Virus record (IMG/VR): IMGVR_UViG_3300009093_000022
Direction: 5' to 3' (one strand)
Source: a virus
DNA: 45,230 nucleotides
Shown: in pieces, positions 124 through 34,564 of the stretch
Position numbering within the stretch: the stretch's first letter is position 1
Layout of the letters: every line of letters begins with the position of its first letter
Position numbers and translations under genes: made by a program
The notes under the pieces: generated by a model
What the model saw: only the letters and a program-made list of their open reading frames with translations
The model's database searches: none
What the model was told of the DNA's origin: nothing

Positions 124-3100
124 CTTGTCCAAGAGCCAACCCGCGCGCCAGATCTACTGCGCTCTTCGGGTGCTGCTTACCGCTCTTGACATCCGCTGCA
201 TATTGTAGCGTAGTCCCAATCTGTCCGGCACCCGGAATCGCCAATCCAATGGCATTCCCGAGATCCTTAATAGGTGCTTTCGGTTGCTTTCCATGAGCCG
301 CATCCCATGCGTCCTTGAACGGCTTTCCTCCTGCCGAAAGCGCCCGCATCAGTGGCGACAGGCCCGCGTCGTTGAAACCTTTCAGGGCCGACCACGCGTC
401 ACGCAATCCCGGAACCATCCCGGCGAATTCCCCGGTGATAGCCTTCGCCGCCCATTCTCCGAATCCCTCGCCCTTGTGTTGCTTCTCGACGACACCGGCT
501 GCGAGAGCCGGGACGATCGACGCCATCAGGAATCGAGCCAGCACTTCAGGCTTGGAAAAGCCAGAAGTCCGAAGTTTGTCCGCCATGTCCATCGTTTGAC
601 CCAAACTGTTGTTCATGAAGCCGTAGAGAGTGGTCATCATCTTGACCGCCTCGCTCTTGCTTTGAAGGATGCGCGATCGCGCCGACTCGATCTGGCTACC
701 ATGCGCCTCACGGACGATCTGGTTCGCGTATTCGATCGCATCAGCTTCGCTCATCGGCTTGCCCGTGCCGCCACGGTTGGTCGGGATGCCTTCGGTGATT
801 GCGCGGTCATACGCAGCCCACGCCGTGGGGACTGCGGACAGCAGGTCTAGATACGCGACGCCGGCATGACCAAACCGCTCAGCCTTCGAATGGAAACTCT
901 CTGGCTCAAACAGCGATGCCGTGGTTTGACGATAGTCGCGATCCTGCTGCATGGCGCGCGCTCGGATCTCTGGGAACTTCTCGATCGCCCCTTCCATCAT
1001 GCCTGTGTGGTCGGTGGCCATCTGTGCCGCCCGAGCGAGGAAGTATTTGTTGCCGCCGCCCGAGAAATACCCCGACGACTTGAACAGGGCGGAGCCGCCA
1101 TGCTTGATCATCGTCGAGATTCGCAGGGCAATTCCGTTCGCGACCAGCATGTGTCGGGTCGACTCCATGATCTTGCCGAGGCGGCTCATCTGCGCGTCCG
1201 TGTTCGGGCCGTTCGCCAAGTCACCAATCCATTCCTGCATCGCCTTGTACTGCTCGGTTCCATAGGTCAACTGGAACTGGCGCCGGAAGTCCTGACTCGA
1301 CAGGATCTTGTGCGCGTCGAGCAATGCCTCGCGATAGGCAAGATCGTGGATCGTGTCATGCAGACGTCGTTCGATCGAATGGAATCCAAGGTCGAGCCGA
1401 TCGAAATAGTTCGTCCGTGCGTTCAATGAGCCGTTGGTCGTCGTGTCGGCACGGAAATATCCCTTGCCGAACAGGCCTTCGCTCGGGTTGATGGCAGTCG
1501 CGTCGGACTTCCTGACCGCCAGTTTCGAGCGGATCGGATCGTAGTCGATCGGGGCATAGCCCCCCTTCATCTCGATACCGTCCGGCGTGCGGAACGGCCG
1601 CGGCTCGATGTGGTCGGGTGAGACATTCCCCAGGCGCTGGTTCATCGCAACCATGTCAGGCCAGTGGCGCTCGAATGCATCCCACGTTGCCTGCGTCGCC
1701 TTCCAGTCGGCCGGCGTCATGTTCTCGTGCAGGAACGCCCAGACGTCCCGGCCATCCCATTCCATGCCGCGGGTCAGCTTTTCGAAGTTCGATTCGTTGC
1801 CAACGTGGCGAGCGATACCGAGCATGTCGCCGCGCGTCAGGCGCCGATAGACTGGTTCGCCCATCTCCTGCGTCAGATCGGCATCGATCAGTCGGCTGTT
1901 CGGTACCAAGTCACTCAGCGAATTCTGCCAGTCCACACCGAGTTCTCCGGCTACTGACCGGAAATCATCGGCCAGCGTCTTGAGCATGTCGATCTTGCGA
2001 TAGTTGGCATCGAACACCCGATCGAAGATCGCGCGAGTGAACGGACCCAGCACCTCATGCTGGTCGAACTGATTGGCCTTGAACTGCTGAGGTTTCAATT
2101 CTGCAACAGAGGCCCGAAGCCACGACCCCATCCGGTCGAGCGCAACCCGAACGAGTGGGTCAGTACCGACGCGAGGCCGATCGACAATCTCCTGCATGGA
2201 GAACTGTTCGCCGCGGGCTTTCATCTTGTCGACGAGATCGCCGACGATTTCGTCCAGAGCCATTCGCTTGCCGGCGACTGTAACTGTCTTGCGCTCCTTG
2301 GCGATTTGCTCGAGCGAACGGATCGTATCGTTGAATCCTCGAAGCTGCTCGACCGTCATGTCCTTGTAATGCATGCGGACAGTTGGATCCAGCATGCCGG
2401 GATGTTCGACCGGTGCGTATCCGTACGCCTTCTGCGTATCCATCCAGTCCTGAAGCGATACCTGCTGCTTGGTCGGGCCTTCGGGCGGTTTCTGGCGGAA
2501 ATCGAATCGCTCGCGCAGTGCGTCGATTTGCTCGAGCACATCCGGATCCATCTTCGCGCGGATGCTGGCCTTGTCGTAACGGGCCTGCGACGACACGATC
2601 TTCTTGATGTCGGCGATCGCATCTCGCGCAGCCTTCGCCAGCCGGTTAGACAACAACGCCTGGCGCTGGGCTTCGACTGCCTTCTCGGGGCTTTTCGGCG
2701 CCTGTGCAATAGCTTCTCGGTTGGCCTTCGTCTCGGCGACTTCATGCTGGCGCGGGTTGACGTCTCGCACACGTTTCTGCGCAATAGCCGACTGCGCCGC
2801 CTCGTCTGCCGCCTTCGTCAAGTCACGCACCGGAACCGGAGACTTCGCGAGGATCTTCAGCCCGGTCGCCATGAAGCGGGCGCGGGCTTCGTTGTGGACG
2901 GCTTCGTTCGCCGCATCCTCGATCGCCTGAGGGTCGACCAGTTCGCCGTGACGTTCCAGCATGCGCTGATCGGTCAGGCGATCGATCTCGGCGTTGCGGT
3001 CAGCCTTCGTGCGATCCAGGCCGGCGATCAGTTCTTCGCGGCTCGGGATGCCGAACTGCTCCGCGACCGCATCCATGATGACGGATTCTTTCTTCTTCAG

Positions 3101-5692
3101 GTCGTTTGCAGCGATATAGTTCCGGGCCCGCTCGATCGGCGAGTTGTCCATCTCGCGCGTGACTTCCTCCCGAATCAGATCCCGTTGCGCATTCGCCTCG
3201 CGCTGCATTGCGCGAATCGCCTTAGACTTGGCACGGCTCGCCCACTTCATGTCCTTCAGGCTGCGTTCCTGCATGTCGGAGACGGCCTGATCCGTGGCAT
3301 GCTGACCCAGCGCGGCATAGTTCGAAAGCTGCTTCTCGGTCGCGCCTGACTTCGACAGGTCGAGCGGAGCATATCCACGTGCGGCCTCCGTCTCGCGGAT
3401 AGCCTGATCCGAAGCCAGCAGCCGGTCGAACACTCCGCGCACCTCGGGACTCAGTTGAACCCCGAGCGACGCGACGCTGCGGTAGAGGTTGACCAGCCAC
3501 GAACGGAACCGCGCGAACAGCGGTTGAAGCGCCTGGGTCGGGGCCTTCCCTTCCATCAGGTATGCCTCGAATCCACGGGCGAACTTTTCGTGGACGTTGC
3601 GCTGCTGCTCAAGCGTGCGTCCTTGCCAGTCAGCGATATCCTTGCCTCCGGCCCACGACAGGAAGGTCTGGAGGTCGTCCTTGATAGCCGGCGGCGCACC
3701 TTCCCGGCTCGCGAGATCGGTCAGCGTATCGAGGAAGAAGTGCCCGGACTCATGCAGAAAGGTCGACAGGTCGGCGTCCTGCAACAGTGCGACCGTGCGA
3801 GTCTCCGGGTCGAACGCACCGCGGGCGGATTGCTCGAGCGCACCTTCCGGAGCTTCTCCCGCGATGCGCAGCGGGAATTCCTTGTACATCTCGGCCGGCG
3901 TCATCCCGGCCCGCTCGGCCATCGTCCGGTAGAACTCGGTCACTGGGGCCACGCTTGCCTTCACCACGTCAGCCGGATAGCGGCCGGTCGCGGTCATCTG
4001 CTCCGTCAGCGAGTCACCGATCCGCTTGATTTCCTCGTCCTGCGTGGCAGCGTCGGTCTGCATCTTGACCAGTTCATCCGCGCGCGTCGACATTTCCTCC
4101 TTCACGTTCTGGAAGAACTGTTGACCTTCGGCGTACGTCATGCCGCCTTCTTCGGTCTTCAGGTTCGGCAGGATGGCTGCATCCAGAGGGGTTCCAGCGA
4201 TGTGCGTCGCGTAGTCCTCGATCGGAATCTGGACGTCACCGCCAGTTGCTGTCGCTTCCTGAACACGAGCGGCCAAGTCAGGCATGACCGACGTGTCGAT
4301 CGGAGATTGATGCAGGGCATCGGAGAGAGTCTTGCCGTCCACATAGACCGACTGCACCGGACCATCTTCGGCCGCGTCCGCCACGAAGCGCTTGAACGCT
4401 TCCGGGTCGTACTGGCGCAGCTTCGACTCAGCCGCGATCTGGCTGAGCCGCTCGATCGAGGCGCCCCCACGCTCTGCGGTTTCTGCCGCCAGCCCATCCG
4501 AGAATGCACGGCGAGTCGCGTCATGAAGCGGGTTCTGTCCCATCACGCCAGACAGCATGGCGCCAGACAAGCCCGACAGGATCGTGTTGGTCGGATCGAA
4601 GCCTTCTTGTTGCGGCATCACCAGGTTCATCGCCTGGCGACTCACTTCACCCGATACGGCGCCAGACACGAAGCCGGATGCAAGACGAGTGCCGAGGCCG
4701 CCAGCCGCGCCGATCGGCACCACCCCGCCGAGGGTCGTTGTCGCGTAGCTCATCTGCGCAGCACGGATCGCCTGCTGCATGTCGCCGGTCTGGTTGTACA
4801 CGTCCGTACCGGTGTTGACCGCCGACGTCAGCGCCGGGAACAGCATGGCTTTCGCGCCGTGCATTGCCGCCTGCCCGACTGCCGCAAGACCTTCAGTCGC
4901 GGTAGCTGCCTCTCCGCCACCGGCTGTTCCCATGATCTGCACCAGCGTGCCGAGCATGTTGCCGACCGTGTCCGCAGCCTTCACGCCGAACGGCGCATTC
5001 GCTGGTGTCGCCAGCATCTGCCGATTCGCCAGCGGCGGGGCGATCATGTGCCGATACCACCAGTCGGACAGGTGGGTTCCGGCATCCTGACCCGTGACGA
5101 CACTCGACAGGTTCGGGCCAGCAATCGCGCTGGTCGCCTTGTCGATGCCGGACAGACCTGCCCCGATGGCGCGGTTCAGCCCCAGTGCTGCGCTGTTGAA
5201 GCTTGAGCCAAACCCGCGCGCGAGTCCCCCGAGAAAATCGCGCATCATGCCCGTGGTCTGCTGCGACACGATCAAGTCGATGTCGTTCAGACCGCCGAGT
5301 TCGTCTTTCGCGATACGGGCTGAGTCGGGATTGTTGACGGCCCAATTGGCGAGCTTCGGATTGCCGGCCAGAGCAGCGGCTCCCTGCTGCGCCTTGGCCT
5401 GAGCCTCGTAACGCGAGAGGTCAGTCTCGACCGCGCCTTGCGGCAATCCGATCTGACGCCCGACTTGAGCTGCTCGACCGGCCGTGTCAGCCGGCACGTC
5501 CTGCGTACCGATTACCTGAGCCTGTGCGGCGCGGACGTTAGCTGCATCGCTTGCTGCCTTCTGGTCGCGCAGGAATGCCTCGAACGGATCGGCCCCTTGC
5601 TGGTTTGACGTCTGCGGTTCAGGCGCGAGCGGACTCTGGGCCTGAGCACCGCCCTTGTTGTCTTGCAGAAAGGACTCGAAATCATCGGCCAT
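113..5692 (-). CDS. Giant internal virion / DNA-ejection protein (polyvalent-type) with HExxH metallopeptidase-like motif
   Basis: 1859-aa ORF, last gene of the ejection-protein block before the tailspike. Gly/Ala-rich hydrophobic stretch at about residues 240-390. HESGH at residues 647-651 (nt 3740..3754). Confidence 0.6.
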   Translation of the reverse strand: MADDFESFLQDNKGGAQAQSPLAPEPQTSNQQGADPFEAFLRDQKAASDAANVRAAQAQVIGTQDVPADTAGRAAQVGRQIGLPQGAVETDLSRYEAQAKAQQGAAALAGNPKLANWAVNNPDSARIAKDELGGLNDIDLIVSQQTTGMMRDFLGGLARGFGSSFNSAALGLNRAIGAGLSGIDKATSAIAGPNLSSVVTGQDAGTHLSDWWYRHMIAPPLANRQMLATPANAPFGVKAADTVGNMLGTLVQIMGTAGGGEAATATEGLAAVGQAAMHGAKAMLFPALTSAVNTGTDVYNQTGDMQQAIRAAQMSYATTTLGGVVPIGAAGGLGTRLASGFVSGAVSGEVSRQAMNLVMPQQEGFDPTNTILSGLSGAMLSGVMGQNPLHDATRRAFSDGLAAETAERGGASIERLSQIAAESKLRQYDPEAFKRFVADAAEDGPVQSVYVDGKTLSDALHQSPIDTSVMPDLAARVQEATATGGDVQIPIEDYATHIAGTPLDAAILPNLKTEEGGMTYAEGQQFFQNVKEEMSTRADELVKMQTDAATQDEEIKRIGDSLTEQMTATGRYPADVVKASVAPVTEFYRTMAERAGMTPAEMYKEFPLRIAGEAPEGALEQSARGAFDPETRTVALLQDADLSTFLHESGHFFLDTLTDLASREGAPPAIKDDLQTFLSWAGGKDIADWQGRTLEQQRNVHEKFARGFEAYLMEGKAPTQALQPLFARFRSWLVNLYRSVASLGVQLSPEVRGVFDRLLASDQAIRETEAARGYAPLDLSKSGATEKQLSNYAALGQHATDQAVSDMQERSLKDMKWASRAKSKAIRAMQREANAQRDLIREEVTREMDNSPIERARNYIAANDLKKKESVIMDAVAEQFGIPSREELIAGLDRTKADRNAEIDRLTDQRMLERHGELVDPQAIEDAANEAVHNEARARFMATGLKILAKSPVPVRDLTKAADEAAQSAIAQKRVRDVNPRQHEVAETKANREAIAQAPKSPEKAVEAQRQALLSNRLAKAARDAIADIKKIVSSQARYDKASIRAKMDPDVLEQIDALRERFDFRQKPPEGPTKQQVSLQDWMDTQKAYGYAPVEHPGMLDPTVRMHYKDMTVEQLRGFNDTIRSLEQIAKERKTVTVAGKRMALDEIVGDLVDKMKARGEQFSMQEIVDRPRVGTDPLVRVALDRMGSWLRASVAELKPQQFKANQFDQHEVLGPFTRAIFDRVFDANYRKIDMLKTLADDFRSVAGELGVDWQNSLSDLVPNSRLIDADLTQEMGEPVYRRLTRGDMLGIARHVGNESNFEKLTRGMEWDGRDVWAFLHENMTPADWKATQATWDAFERHWPDMVAMNQRLGNVSPDHIEPRPFRTPDGIEMKGGYAPIDYDPIRSKLAVRKSDATAINPSEGLFGKGYFRADTTTNGSLNARTNYFDRLDLGFHSIERRLHDTIHDLAYREALLDAHKILSSQDFRRQFQLTYGTEQYKAMQEWIGDLANGPNTDAQMSRLGKIMESTRHMLVANGIALRISTMIKHGGSALFKSSGYFSGGGNKYFLARAAQMATDHTGMMEGAIEKFPEIRARAMQQDRDYRQTTASLFEPESFHSKAERFGHAGVAYLDLLSAVPTAWAAYDRAITEGIPTNRGGTGKPMSEADAIEYANQIVREAHGSQIESARSRILQSKSEAVKMMTTLYGFMNNSLGQTMDMADKLRTSGFSKPEVLARFLMASIVPALAAGVVEKQHKGEGFGEWAAKAITGEFAGMVPGLRDAWSALKGFNDAGLSPLMRALSAGGKPFKDAWDAAHGKQPKAPIKDLGNAIGLAIPGAGQIGTTLQYAADVKSGKQHPKSAVDLARGLALGQGNQ

Positions 5693-30982: not shown

Positions 30983-31170
30983 CAGACGACGGGCCCGACT
31001 ACTGGATGGCGCAACAGGCGCAAGAAGAACTGGAATGGCATGAAGAGCGGAGAAAGAATCGTGAGCGAGAAGAAAACCGGATTGCAAAGGCTGCGGGAGC
31101 CCTTCCCGGAACATCAGATCAGCCTCCTCCCCAAGCCCTACAAGCGGGACTCCCCGAAGGGGAATTGTGA
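30979..31170 (+). CDS. Hypothetical 63-aa acidic protein, 3' part overlapping the annealase gene
   Basis: ORF coupled by ATGA to the upstream peptide. The last ~36 codons overlap the Rad52-like gene, where its third-position GC is low. Confidence 0.35.
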   Translation: MTDDGPDYWMAQQAQEELEWHEERRKNREREENRIAKAAGALPGTSDQPPPQALQAGLPEGEL

Positions 31171-31708
31171 TGTGTGTGGTGGCTGGCATGGTCTTCCTGC
31201 CCTCCATTTGAGCTATGTCGGCCACGCCGCTCTTACTGACCGGTTGCTTGAATGCGACGAAAACTGGTCTTGGGAGCCTCTGGCGCTCGGCCCTGATGGC
31301 CTGCCCTTGCTGGACCGTGACGGCGGCATGTGGATCCGTCTGACGGTCTGCGGCGTGACTCGACTTGGTTATGGCGATGCGCAAGGGAAGACTGGACCTG
31401 ACGCCACGAAAGAACGGATCGGTGACGCACTGCGTAACGCAGCCATGCGTTTCGGTGCCGCGCTAGATCTGTGGCACAAGGGTGATCTTCACGGGCCGGA
31501 AGGCGAGCCGGAAGAACCCGAGGTACAAGCTATCACCGAAAGCGAATTCGAGGATCTCCGCGTTGCTCTTCGCGAAGCTGACGATCTCGAAACGCTGGAA
31601 AGAATCGGGAAAGGTGTGCCGCAGAACGCAAGCCAGCAACAGAAGGCCGAACTTGCAACCGAATACACCAAGCGGAAGCGCGCGCTGAAGGCCCAGGTGC
31701 CAGCATGA
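31040..31708 (+). CDS. Rad52/Sak-type single-strand annealing protein
   Basis: 222 aa. LREPFPEHQISLLPKP, CDVCGGWHG, IGDALRNAAMRFGAALDLW are typical of phage Rad52-family annealases. The true start could be GTG 31061 (GGAG upstream). Confidence 0.65.
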   Translation: MKSGERIVSEKKTGLQRLREPFPEHQISLLPKPYKRDSPKGNCDVCGGWHGLPALHLSYVGHAALTDRLLECDENWSWEPLALGPDGLPLLDRDGGMWIRLTVCGVTRLGYGDAQGKTGPDATKERIGDALRNAAMRFGAALDLWHKGDLHGPEGEPEEPEVQAITESEFEDLRVALREADDLETLERIGKGVPQNASQQQKAELATEYTKRKRALKAQVPA

Positions 31709-31983
31709 ATCTGGACAACATCGACCCGACCGTGATCGTGGCACGTGGCGAATATGCGACCGTGAACGGCGAGTACAAAACCACGATGTCCCTGCTGCAA
31801 ACGCGCGTTCAGGGCGCCTGCGATTCGCTGCGTCATGCGTTGCAGCACGACACCGACCGGATCGAGTTGATCGACCAGATCGCAATCCTTCTGTCCAGCA
31901 TCCGGGAAACTGCGGTTATCGCGAAAGAACTGAAAGAGCAGAAAGACGAGCTTTGGGAATCAGCGTGGGGAGGCAGGAAATGA
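31705..31983 (+). CDS. Hypothetical protein
   Basis: 92-aa ORF with ATGA overlaps at both ends. Confidence 0.55.
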   Translation: MNLDNIDPTVIVARGEYATVNGEYKTTMSLLQTRVQGACDSLRHALQHDTDRIELIDQIAILLSSIRETAVIAKELKEQKDELWESAWGGRK

Positions 31984-32369
31984 GCAAGGTATTCGTTCTC
32001 CGCGCGCCTGAACACGGCCACGCACTCGTCAGCTACATCAAGTCGCTTGCCGGCCCCATGGCGGCTTCCGGAAAGCCTCTGATGGTCACGGTGGACGAAT
32101 ATCAGGCGAAGCGCTCCAGCGAGCAGAACCGGCTTCTCTGGGCTCTCCTGACGGAGATTGCCGAACAAGTGGAGCTGGAAGGCAAGCGGTTCGCCAAGGA
32201 AGCTTGGTACGCCCACTACCTCGATCTCTATGCCCCCAAGCAGGAAGGACCGCGCGGCCTTGTGCCGGTGGGATCGAGCCAGATGACGAAAGAGCAGTTC
32301 GCCAATTTTGTGACGCGCATCGAGTGCCACGCAGTGCAGGAACTTGGCGTCGAATTCGCAGCGATTTGA
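31980..32369 (+). CDS. ninB: NinB/Orf-family recombination mediator
   Basis: 129 aa from ATG 31980. KRSSEQNRLLWALLTEIA is a NinB-type SxxQNxxxW motif. Confidence 0.7.
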   Translation: MSKVFVLRAPEHGHALVSYIKSLAGPMAASGKPLMVTVDEYQAKRSSEQNRLLWALLTEIAEQVELEGKRFAKEAWYAHYLDLYAPKQEGPRGLVPVGSSQMTKEQFANFVTRIECHAVQELGVEFAAI

Positions 32370-32447
32370 CTTCATGACAGCCCCCCCTTGGAAGGGCCGC
32401 AGTCCCGGGCCCGACTTTTTGAGGCTGTACTACTGATTGAGGATGAC

Positions 32448-33500
32448 GTGCCTGCGTACTACAACGAGCACGACCCATACGCCGCGCAGTGGCTGCGCAA
32501 CCTGATCGCCGCCGGACACATCGCTCCTGGCGACGTCGATGAACGGAGCATTGAGGATGTCCGACCTGATGACCTGCGAGCCTACGACCAGTGCCATTTC
32601 TTCGCCGGAATCGGCGTCTGGTCGTACGCGCTTCGACGCGCCGGCTGGCCCGATGATCGACCTGTTTGGACCGGTTCCTGTCCTTGCCAACCTTTCTCCG
32701 CGGCAGGCAAAGGAGCTGGGTTTGATGACGAGCGGCACCTGTGGCCTGTGTGGTACTGGCTCATCGGCGAGTGCCGCCCTCCAGTCATCTTTGGAGAGCA
32801 GGTTGCGAGTTCGGCTGTCGACCCTTGGATCGATCTTGTACACGCTGACATGGAAGCGCTGGACAACGCCTTCGGGTGTGTCCCGTTCCCGTCTGCGGGC
32901 GTCGATGCCTCGCACATCCGTGACCGGGCGTACTGGCTGGCCTACGCCAGTCGTGAACGATTCGAGCAATACCCGCAACGCAACTGCGAACCGATTCCCA
33001 AATGCGAAACCGGCGCACTCGGGGATGACATTGCTGGACGCGGCGACACTCGCAGGCTGGGGCACGCCGAACGCATCGGCGCCGGGCGGAACGCCGGAAC
33101 AGGCGCTGGCTCGCAAAGCAGGATTGCAGTGCGGGCAGTCAGTGACGACGCTCGATCACCAGGTGCAATTGGCTGGCTGGCCGACACCTCGAGCGGCGGA
33201 CGGCGAGAAGAATGTTCGGACGATGGACGGGGCATGGCGAGAGATCGAGAGGAAGGGTTCGCCGCAAGACCTCTCGATGGCAGCGGCAATTGTGGGGCTA
33301 GCCCGACTAACGGCTTCTGGCGAGCTGCTGATTGGCTCCTCTGCCGGGATGGAAAATGGCGGCCAGTTGAACCCGGCACATTCCCGCTGGTTGATGGGGC
33401 TCCCGCGCGAGTGGGACGACTGCGCGCCTACGGCAACGCGATCAACGCAGAAGCGGCAACGCAATTCATCCTCGCCGCGCAAGACATCCTGACCATCTGA
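32448..33500 (+). CDS. DNA (cytosine-5)-methyltransferase, with an anomalous middle region
   Basis: GTG 32448 (GAGG upstream). Motifs [36 protein letters not shown] and [15 protein letters not shown]. The middle ~130 codons are R/G/D/A-rich and look off-frame. Confidence 0.75.
32539..33492 (+). other. +1-frame ORF inside the methyltransferase gene carrying LAGW(P/G)TP modules and a motif-IX-like [16 protein letters not shown]
   Basis: 317 codons open. From about 32930 onward it has three ~40-aa modules, ordinary amino-acid composition and higher third-position GC than the annotated frame. A possible internal ATG lies at 32905. Confidence 0.35.
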
Positions 33501-33508
33501 GGACCACC

Positions 33509-34564
33509 ATGACCACCACCGACAATAGCCGCGCTGATGCGCTGACGGCACAAGAAGCACTCGCCGCGATCGAGACGTTCGAAATCGTCGGCGAGAACAA
33601 CGATTCGCGCGAACCGAACGACGACGATCGTTTCATCCTGACCGAGTTCATTGCGCACGCGTTCGGCGGATACCCTGTCGAGCAGCACGAAGCAGCGCCG
33701 GCCGACGTGAACCAGCTTCTCGAAGCCGCCGCACTCGGGCTGGAACGAGCCGGGATGCTCGACTGCATGCGCATCGTGCGGGGCATGAAACCCGGCTACC
33801 CAAAGCAACCCGCACCGGCCTCCCCGCTCGAAGGCACGGGCAATGGGGCGGATGAGCGGGTGGCGAATCCCATCGGCTATATCCGCGCAGATGATCTGAA
33901 AGAGCTGGCGGCTGGTAACGGCGCAATCATATCCCCGAAATGTGGCGCTACTGACGTGCCTGTGTTCGCCCGCGCCCCTCGCACTGAGGTGGCGGGGGCG
34001 GAAGCCCCGATTCTTAATCGGAAGGAATATGAGTATGCGCAACCCGGTTCGCCGGAATTTGATGGCGCAGAAGCATATGAGCAATATCTCGCTAAAACGT
34101 ATTCAAATGCAGAAGCGACGGAAGATGAGCGGGCGGATTGTATTACGTGGGCGAATGCAAACGGGTTCACGAAGTACCACGAATCGATGTGCGCAGCATG
34201 GGAAGAACGCGGACGCCGCGCGGCAGCATCGCAGCCCGCAGCGGGGCAAGAGACGCCGGAACCCGTGTGCTGGATCACGAAGGAGCAGCTCGAACAATTG
34301 GAAGACCTGACCTCCGATGCATGGGTCTACTGGCGCGAAACGGGCCACGTTGCTGAAGACGACGAGCTCGCGCTCTACACCGCCCCGCCCGCGCAGGTCG
34401 CCACTCGGCAGGGGCTGACGGACGAGCCGCCGTACTTCTGGCGTCGAATCTTGGACACCCTGAATCAGCAGGGCATCACGTGGACTGATGCGGGGTGGGT
34501 GTTCACAGATGACGATCGCCTTTACCGATTCGGCGTCGCCCTTCTCGAAGGAGCCAAGCAATGA
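33509..34564 (+). CDS. Hypothetical 351-aa acidic early protein
   Basis: Largest ORF of unknown function in the early operon. GAGGA RBS. Normal codon-position GC. Confidence 0.7.
   Translation: MTTTDNSRADALTAQEALAAIETFEIVGENNDSREPNDDDRFILTEFIAHAFGGYPVEQHEAAPADVNQLLEAAALGLERAGMLDCMRIVRGMKPGYPKQPAPASPLEGTGNGADERVANPIGYIRADDLKELAAGNGAIISPKCGATDVPVFARAPRTEVAGAEAPILNRKEYEYAQPGSPEFDGAEAYEQYLAKTYSNAEATEDERADCITWANANGFTKYHESMCAAWEERGRRAAASQPAAGQETPEPVCWITKEQLEQLEDLTSDAWVYWRETGHVAEDDELALYTAPPAQVATRQGLTDEPPYFWRRILDTLNQQGITWTDAGWVFTDDDRLYRFGVALLEGAKQ

Follow-up and report, generated by a model that had tools for sequence, protein, structure and literature searches.

M.EcoHK31I, a heterodimeric C5-methyltransferase from a type II restriction-modification system of Escherichia coli, is the one characterized C5-methyltransferase in which the β subunit is encoded inside the α gene. 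According to the passages dealing with this enzyme in PMC2836561 and PMC3404938 (citing PMID 7870574), the β gene lies in another frame entirely within the α gene, α carries motifs I to VIII, motif X, and the presumed target-recognition domain (TRD), and β carries motif IX; both chains are required, the first 42 residues of β being dispensable. M.AquI is also a two-subunit C5-methyltransferase, with motifs IX and X located together on the small subunit (in the part of PMC3404938 concerned with it, which cites Karreman & de Waard 1990). Lambda Rz1, located inside Rz, provides an example of an embedded phage gene (in the sections of PMC11445585 and PMC9409062 that mention it). Here, we report the comparative analysis of a C5-cytosine methyltransferase gene carried by a phage-like contig of 45,230 bp (IMG/VR record IMGVR_UViG_3300009093_000022, an entire JGI contig, referred to below as the window). 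In the window, a second open reading frame (ORF), designated B, lies wholly inside this gene, designated A, in a different frame (offset +1). We present evidence that selection acts on both frames and propose that B probably encodes the DNA-recognition subunit of the methyltransferase. The two ORFs and the motifs that they contain are located as follows.

32448..33500, + strand: frame A ORF (α), C5-cytosine methyltransferase of 350 amino acids (aa) from GTG 32448
32557..33492, + strand: frame B ORF (A+1, putative β), 311 aa from the conserved ATG 32557
32544..32547, + strand: GGAG Shine-Dalgarno (SD) sequence for B, 9 nucleotides (nt) upstream of ATG 32557, within A codons CGG AGC
32448..32978, + strand: catalytic (large) domain of A, aa 1-177, with motifs I, IV, VI, and VIII
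32598-32624, + strand: A motif I, FFAGIGVWS
32676-32699, + strand: A motif IV, SCPCQPFS
32790-32804, + strand: A motif VI, FGEQV (GEQV instead of ENV)
32913-32927, + strand: A motif VIII, HIRDR
32935, 33055, and 33175, + strand: B GW(P/G)TP motifs, at a spacing of exactly 120 nt
33364-33423, + strand: B motif IX-like element
33429..33470, + strand: A motif X, part of a C-terminal helix packing on the catalytic domain

Frame A is open from TTG 32388, and the existing gene call of the contig is 370 aa long; homologues of A begin at the position equivalent to 32448 and are named 'DNA cytosine methyltransferase'. Frame B is open over 317 codons (32539..33492), with further in-frame ATGs at 32539 and 32569, and the overlap of A and B amounts to about 930 nt on the same strand. 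A first-pass annotation made from the letters alone had described two ORFs lacking stops and had quoted motifs from each of them; the ORF coordinates were confirmed in the window, and every motif was found where it had been placed.

The locus has the same layout as that of M.EcoHK31I, with β inside α in another frame, the likeness being one of gene layout. Alternative internal ATGs can start β in both cases. The β chain of M.EcoHK31I comprises 176 aa and is encoded within a gene for a 309-aa α chain, whereas that of the window would comprise 311 aa and cover about 89% of the gene for a 350-aa α chain. The window enzyme also differs in being an orphan phage or prophage methyltransferase devoid of a restriction partner. 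Suggestively close to M.EcoHK31I are the low-GC (guanine plus cytosine) E. coli phages of the window family, in which α comprises 284 to 309 aa and β about 197 to 265 codons. No hit named EcoHK31I was found among the homologues listed for A, B, or ORF29 of phage K1ind3 (see below). As in M.AquI, one chain carries the large domain (motifs I to VIII) and the other would carry the distal recognition region, but motif X stays on α in the window and the two genes are superimposed. The locus shares with Rz1/Rz a same-strand gene wholly inside another one in a different frame, and products that are thought to cooperate. The Rz1 overlap is shorter than 200 nt, unlike that of the window, which includes two long doubly constrained segments (240 and 150 nt).

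At each of 80 genome loci, all from different species, A and B each gave a single full-length tblastn match, and B was always in frame A+1. These loci spanned the beta-, gamma-, alpha-, and deltaproteobacteria, with GC contents ranging from 47% (Yersinia) to 68%. An open frame of at least 250 codons was present in 79 (A), 80 (B), and 0 (third sense frame; median of 64 codons) of 81 loci, and one locus contained an insertion interrupting B. In phages, the A-specific C terminus was found in 229 records and the B C terminus in 217, with the same taxonomic make-up. The A+1 pair was present in approximately 95% of the phage records containing this methyltransferase type, down to 45 to 47% GC, and B ran over 197 to 351 codons even in genomes with 45 to 53% GC. 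The pair was found in two E. coli phages (K1ind3, with annotation of both ORFs, and N15, with annotation of gp58 alone), in Xanthomonas phage PhiXhv-18, in Rhodobacter phage RcDora, in an EBPR siphovirus, in a cyanophage, and in the myovirus HdK5 (45% GC). A single in-frame TGA was present in A, with B intact, at 3 of the 80 loci (L018, stop at 3078; L033, 2958; L058, 3492), which could be pseudogenes, result from sequencing errors, or have retained only B.

The mode of selection was determined on a B-codon alignment of 69 loci, in which nucleotide conservation was measured per A codon position, and by an OLGenie-type test performed on 34 independent pairs with bootstrap intervals. In this layout, A codon positions 1, 2, and 3 correspond to B positions 3, 1, and 2, respectively. 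The results are given below by segment, as nucleotide identity at A positions 1/2/3 followed by the values of omega for each frame (ωA and ωB).

32451-32538: A only, ordinary single coding; identity.86/.88/.52
32557-32690, + strand: only A constrained, with the identity pattern of single coding; B leader of about 45 codons, open, with its amino acids free; identity.87/.89/.57; ωA 0.11, ωB 0.90 (0.74-1.10)
32691-32930, + strand: both frames constrained; identity.77/.84/.74; ωA 0.32 (.27-.38), ωB 0.42 (.38-.47)
32931-33290, + strand: only B constrained; identity.39/.45/.47; ωA 1.10 (1.02-1.18), ωB 0.58 (.47-.72)
33291-33440, + strand: both frames constrained; identity.81/.88/.81; ωA 0.33, ωB 0.33
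33441-33489: return to the A-only pattern of conservation; identity.63/.65/.47

In the first doubly constrained segment, A reads motifs IV to VIII and B reads a conserved N-domain; the third codon positions of A are conserved at 0.74 in this segment versus 0.52 where the gene codes for A alone. In the second one (33291-33440), B carries the motif IX-like element and A a conserved piece. About 390 nt are accordingly under purifying selection in both frames at once. Between these segments, B forms three modules of about 40 aa built on (A)GW(P/G)TP, its third codon position being the most variable, and A is a sequence-unconstrained linker, which is predicted to be disordered and is kept open. The unconstrained stretches, in B at 32557-32690 and in A at 32931-33290, serve as internal controls. 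The alignment and selection test on homologues that the first-pass annotation had proposed thus revealed constraint in both frames, arranged as a mosaic of segments, and its description of a coding signal shifting from A to the +1 frame and back to A correctly located where selection acts.

The openness of the two frames was investigated by shuffle tests, in which the protein of one frame was kept, synonymous codons were resampled or shuffled, and the openness of the other frame was scored. When the B protein was kept, none of 300 shuffles left A open in most of the loci tried; when the A protein was kept, B was open in 0 to 13 of 300 shuffles in most loci. Over the neutral part of A (32932-33291), the number of loci with an open frame A expected with the B protein kept was 2.6 of 69, versus 69 of 69 observed, the 69 loci having been chosen beforehand as uninterrupted (three of all 80 had one stop in A). 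The third-frame control gave 2 observed versus 3.3 expected. Together, the values of ωB in three segments (0.42, 0.58, and 0.33, all with bootstrap intervals that stay under 1) and openness beyond expectation make it very probable that both frames encode selected proteins and that this is a real, conserved dual-coding locus.

Codon usage in A points to signals for the initiation of B. ATG 32557 is located inside the A codons GAG GAT GTC, in which Asp is encoded by GAT in 58 of 69 loci, versus 38% gene-wide. At the position of the SD sequence, the Arg codon of A is AGG in 33 of 69 loci and CGG in 10 of 69, AGG accounting for 7% of the Arg codons gene-wide. This atypical codon choice indicates that the ATG and the GGAG of B are preserved. 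Nine of the remaining loci have ATG or GTG at 32569. Two more in-frame ATGs of B, at 32653-32655 (MIDLFGP) and at 32725-32727 (LMTSGT), are not conserved across Proteobacteria. Profile position 27, which we took as ATG 32653-32655, is where B begins in many of the gene calls found in databases, and ATG 32725-32727 is at the DNA position where the +1 ORFs of mycobacteriophages begin (MNDTSG). The start of B may therefore differ between lineages.

Separate profile searches with the two translations, also proposed by the first-pass annotation, matched A to phrog_363 and PF00145 and B to phrog_1008. For A, the match to phrog_363 extended over aa 2-347 (E value of 4.6e-82), and that to PF00145 was limited to the motif IV region (aa 74-119; 28.5 bits for a cut-off of 22). 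Alignment of A by hhalign to residues 9-179 of M.HhaI had a probability of 97%. The AlphaFold model of A had pLDDT values of mostly 80 to 96 over aa 1-177, the domain for which ωA was 0.11 to 0.32. Foldseek retrieved M.HhaI, M.HaeIII, and DNMT1 over about 167 columns corresponding to the large domain only, with E values of about 3e-6 for M.HhaI and M.HaeIII. By its motifs and its large domain, A is thus a C5-methyltransferase. In contrast, pLDDT fell to about 30 over aa 178-300, and the stretch from motif VIII to motif X did not contain a folded small domain (TRD plus motif IX) in the model. A C-terminal helix was predicted at aa 322-349 (pLDDT of about 85 to 88), and residues G329, N330, and A331 were invariant in 54 homologues. 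Motif X was assigned by its pattern and position, the hhalign alignment to M.HhaI having left it unaligned.

The match of B to phrog_1008 covered nearly its full length (E value of 5.7e-46). More than 6000 homologues of B were found in a database clustered at 90% identity, with 49 to 76% identity and about 96% coverage, and the B profile retrieved 16,242 clusters (50% identity) at an E value of at most 1e-3 and 7,466 at an E value of at most 1e-30. The B family had no match in Pfam or NCBIfam, and Pfam also missed the motif IX-like element of B. In the alignment of B homologues, highly conserved blocks stand beside (A)GWPTP modules, whose number varies from 1 to 5 and which are always gained and lost by in-frame indels.

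Evidence on the relationship of B to C5-methyltransferases came from actinophages, in which a motif search retrieved 576 records. Gp70 of Mycobacterium phage ShiLan (NC_041988, 389 aa) contains a PF00145 catalytic domain, three LLPTP modules, and ...RLAPAFSEWMMGWPAGWVTEVPGISRNDQLRIIGNGVVPQQAA, all in one frame. Homology to A is seen in the catalytic half (E value of 4.5e-16 for the A profile against residues 66-160), where the surroundings of motif IV are almost the same (PCQPFSAAG...DERHLWP). The B profile (window B aa 126-296) matched residues 199-360 of gp70 with an E value of 2.6e-5 and a probability of 75%; this region comprises the LLPTP modules and ...APAFSEWMMGWPAGW... directly before GNGVVP, which corresponds to GNAI of A. 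The alignment score was 43.8 versus 14.7 ± 2.9 (maximum of 23.4) for 100 shuffles, and the motif IX segment of B alone matched a four-sequence alignment of single-chain actinophage enzymes with an E value of 2e-4. The LLPTP modules and ...FSEWMMGWPAGW... of gp70 are therefore homologous to the GWPTP modules and the C-terminal element of B, and the latter are equivalent to the segment separating motifs VIII and X of a single-chain enzyme. Unlike in the window, all these parts are in a single frame in gp70.

The gp70 gene additionally contains a +1 ORF over its catalytic region (MNDTSG...SETWPPSGMTRSGAAFELP...LLPTP), which resembles the N-domain of B and has an ω of about 0.5. A scan with a single protein located nine loci. 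Over the catalytic region of the actinophage genes, the +1 ORF has the pattern M[NS][AD]TSG...SETWPxSGMxxxGxAFELP...SSLLPTP. It extends over 122 to 192 codons in mycobacteriophages (ShiLan, prophiGD91-2, and Phasih) and Propionibacterium phage B22, and over 291 to 311 codons, with 4 to 6 modules, in Streptomyces phage Darolandstone and Arthrobacter phage MidnightRain. In the latter two phages, the middle of the annotated frame resembles Arg/Gly/Asp/Ala-rich off-frame filler, yet this frame carries motifs IX and X; the modules of these loci are in the +1 ORF, but motif IX is in the annotated frame. A six-sequence profile of actinophage +1 ORFs aligned with the N-domain and first modules of B (E value of 4.1e-5); the ShiLan +1 ORF alone did not match the B profile significantly (E value of 0.23). 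For ten mycobacteriophage loci, a small sample of pairs that are not independent, ωA was 0.31 and ωB 0.48, with identities by A codon position of.82/.90/.75. The overlap thus seems to be old, with a split of the modules between frames that differs among lineages.

Based on these comparisons, we propose that two separate polypeptides are produced from the same approximately 930 nt of the same strand. The α chain would consist of the catalytic large domain (motifs I to VIII), a disordered linker of about 100 to 120 aa, and a conserved C-terminal piece ending in motif X. The linker, free in sequence but always open, would tether motif X to the catalytic domain, and the need to join these two parts physically fits the maintenance of a neutral open frame. 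Translation of β would start at its own ATG and SD sequence, about 110 nt into α. The β chain would successively comprise a free leader, the N-domain over motifs IV to VIII of α, the variable GWPTP modules, and the motif IX-like element over the C-terminal piece of α. In this manner, β would make up in trans for the small domain missing from α, which recognizes DNA and comprises target-recognition modules and motif IX, and the active enzyme would be an α/β heteromer similar to M.EcoHK31I. The layout would be that of a canonical single-chain enzyme (catalytic domain, modules, motif IX, and motif X) whose middle is now in the +1 frame. The B leader, with an ω of about 0.9 over its first 45 or so codons, parallels the dispensable N terminus (about 42 residues) of β in M.EcoHK31I. 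The TRD of that enzyme is assigned to α, whereas the corresponding region of α is neutral and predicted to be disordered in the window and the GWPTP modules are in β. From sequence comparisons, we infer that β is translated, binds to α, is needed for methylation, and participates in target choice; we estimate at about 65% the probability that B is a trans-acting small-domain subunit of the methyltransferase.

Several observations weigh against this assignment. The AlphaFold model of B alone was poor (pLDDT of 58; pTM of 0.25), and comparison of B with the PDB gave no match by sequence profile or by structure; the Foldseek matches of the B model were discarded as meaningless, owing to its low confidence. 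The best local hhalign alignment of B with M.HhaI was located exactly at motif IX but was not significant (E value of 0.2 to 0.5), and no significant alignment with M.HhaI was obtained for the C termini of B and A. In our own reading of the sequence, frame A displays a pattern resembling motif IX encoded by the same nucleotides. Since G and P are encoded in both frames by runs of GGGG and CCCG, the resemblance to motif IX could partly be a by-product. The assignment of the B element to motif IX is only moderately supported. In ShiLan-type phages, a complete single-chain enzyme is encoded alongside a shorter +1 ORF, suggesting that the N-domain of B may have some function apart from enzyme completion.

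Some of these observations could be accommodated by the main alternative, in which B would be a translated overlapping gene with another function, such as a regulator, an anti-restriction or anti-defence protein, or a DNA-binding accessory protein, α being self-sufficient with a minimal recognition region. The conservation of the B N-domain over the catalytic domain, the similar +1 ORF beside a complete enzyme (ShiLan, prophiGD91-2, and Phasih), and the lack of detectable similarity of B to solved methyltransferase small domains fit this possibility, as does the conserved piece of about 45 aa that A keeps before motif X, which could be a minimal small domain. We nevertheless consider it unlikely, since the modules and C-terminal element of B are homologous to the motif VIII-X segment of a single-chain enzyme, α alone appears devoid of a folded recognition domain, as judged from the neutrality and predicted disorder of the corresponding region, and the only characterized enzyme with this layout needs both chains (in the passages of PMC2836561 that describe it). 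The third option of the first-pass annotation, an overprinted gene nested in the target-recognition region, was correct in that there is a real second gene. This gene is not nested in that region, as it spans most of the methyltransferase gene, and is probably not unrelated to it, as it looks like the recognition and motif IX part of the same enzyme.

The other two options of the first-pass annotation are frameshifting and indels or sequencing errors. Programmed frameshifting from A to B near 32930 and from B to A near 33425 would generate one fused polypeptide with the motif order I to VIII, TRD, IX, and X, the remainder of both frames being incidental. The best-conserved segments are indeed ordered A, B, A, mimicking a single-chain enzyme, and such a relative exists. 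However, neither slippery heptamers nor homopolymer runs were found at the two junctions in any of the 69 loci, and frame A is not closed soon after the first junction, both frames staying open to the end of the gene. Selection also extends past the junctions, B being constrained before the supposed entry (32691-32930) and A before the supposed re-entry (33291-33440). A is open through 360 neutral nt and B from a conserved ATG preceded by an SD sequence; that each frame is open where its own amino acids are unconstrained argues against a hopping ribosome, which would not need such openness. We know of no precedent for two efficient frameshifts in one message, and we regard this recoding as very improbable. 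Compensating indels, sequencing errors, a pseudogene, or a frame B open merely as a result of high GC and the composition of A could be advocated on the basis of the window taken alone, in which synonymous shuffling of A left B open 12 times in 300 (not very improbable for one gene with 63% GC), and of one antisense frame that is also often long-open. This explanation is already refuted by the comparative data: the identical, constant +1 layout is shared by 80 independent genomes at species level and by over 200 phage records, among them genomes with 45 to 53% GC, ωB is significantly below 1 in three segments, the third position of B is the most variable in the middle segment, module changes are in frame, the start codon and SD sequence are conserved, and the third sense frame behaves as predicted by chance.

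The genes adjacent to the methyltransferase gene, and the antisense ORF that crosses it, are the following.

31040-31708: single-strand annealing protein gene (phrog_3290)
31953-32369: NinB/Orf recombination mediator gene (phrog_72)
33509-34564: gene for a 351-aa protein of unknown function (phrog_6628)
32430..33116, - strand: antisense ORF of 228 codons

The annealing protein and NinB neighbours place the methyltransferase in the early recombination/replication module of a temperate-type phage. The antisense ORF was set aside as a third gene, being long-open only inconsistently among loci: the corresponding frame was open over a median of 187 codons, and 17 of the 81 loci reached 250 codons or more. 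The antisense ORF probably results from the base composition imposed by the two constrained sense frames. Regarding GC at third codon positions (GC3), the hand counts of the first-pass annotation were reproduced at 33061-33300 (0.57 in A versus 0.70 in B) and 33301-33402 (0.56 versus 0.71). For the last 75 nt, the direction (A above B) held, with values of 0.76 and 0.56 instead of 0.80 and 0.64, and the neighbouring gene, put at about 76%, had a GC3 of 0.68 upon recounting. GC3 was not retained as a frame discriminator; it is too weak on its own because the first codon positions of A are GC-rich (0.65 to 0.75) along the entire gene.

Unusual layouts were observed at several loci of the family. 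An insertion of about 430 nt splits the conserved 3′ part of the gene in L009 and L047 (about 3850-4290), frame A extends to 570 to 650 codons in L013 and L073, and frame B extends to 635 codons in L065; these layouts may be fusions with downstream genes. In Krischvirus LF73P4 (locus L088, 855-1713; OZ035795, T4-like, 43% GC), the A-like and B-like readings switch frame at approximately the same point. A 1-nt indel is the suggested cause, arising either from an error in assembly or from decay of the copy. In EBPR siphovirus 2 (locus L085, 1-1865; JF412297), the frame A methylase gp44 (832 aa) contains a large insertion ending in ...DGIVVHN directly before CQPFS, which includes the catalytic Cys of motif IV; this insertion looks like an intein in the active site, and the B-like ORF (419 codons open) starts downstream from it. 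In a P2-like prophage of E. coli TOK-001 (locus L087, 1854-3897; NZ_AP018395), a gene for a Dam-family adenine methyltransferase is located directly upstream of the C5 family member, of which frame A alone is annotated.

Annotation of the second frame is sparse in current databases. Most phage records, such as that of N15 with gp58, contain frame A alone, as do the RefSeq E. coli genomes listed, in which only the 'DNA cytosine methyltransferase' appears. The B family, with its more than 16,000 clusters, is without a Pfam or NCBIfam model, and B is left out of these records and genomes because gene callers reject embedded ORFs. Existing records of the second frame, phrog_1008 and phrog_31772 ('DNA methyltransferase'), are labels only. 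In the GenBank entry of K1ind3 (GU196281), ORF29, a 'putative Mte8-like protein' that belongs to the B family, overlaps ORF30, a 'putative C-specific methylase'. The 'putative Mte8-like protein' label is also attached to the B-frame ORF in K1H, K1ind1, and phage P AB-2017 (records of 2010 to 2017). Our literature searches found neither the source of this label nor a paper describing the overlap in phage methyltransferases or analyzing the labelled second ORFs.

The logic of the gene is the one known from M.EcoHK31I; the extent of the overlap, the location of the modules, and the phage orphan context differ. The locus may be the type example of a very large and ancient superimposed α/β family of Proteobacteria and Actinobacteria phages (more than 16,000 clusters at 50% identity). 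Modules and motif IX may have moved in this family between two permanently open, cotranslated frames (a single frame in ShiLan, the +1 frame here, and a mixed arrangement in the Streptomyces and Arthrobacter phages), the number of β modules possibly setting target specificity. Few of the same-strand dual-coding pairs known from prokaryotic viruses might then be longer or more widespread, and NCBI PGAP would have missed this pair in thousands of genomes. Methylome predictions made from α alone may give the wrong specificity or falsely predict activity. If β carries the recognition modules, the family would be a natural and widespread split C5-methyltransferase, its repeats could explain changes of target in phage orphan methyltransferases, and it would offer a possible scaffold for split-enzyme targeting, as tried with M.EcoHK31I. 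In A, 360 nt would be kept open purely as a tether, and related phages place the same modules in different frames. The locus family therefore provides a tractable, sequence-rich system for the origin and maintenance of dual coding and for the exchange of segments between overlapping genes.

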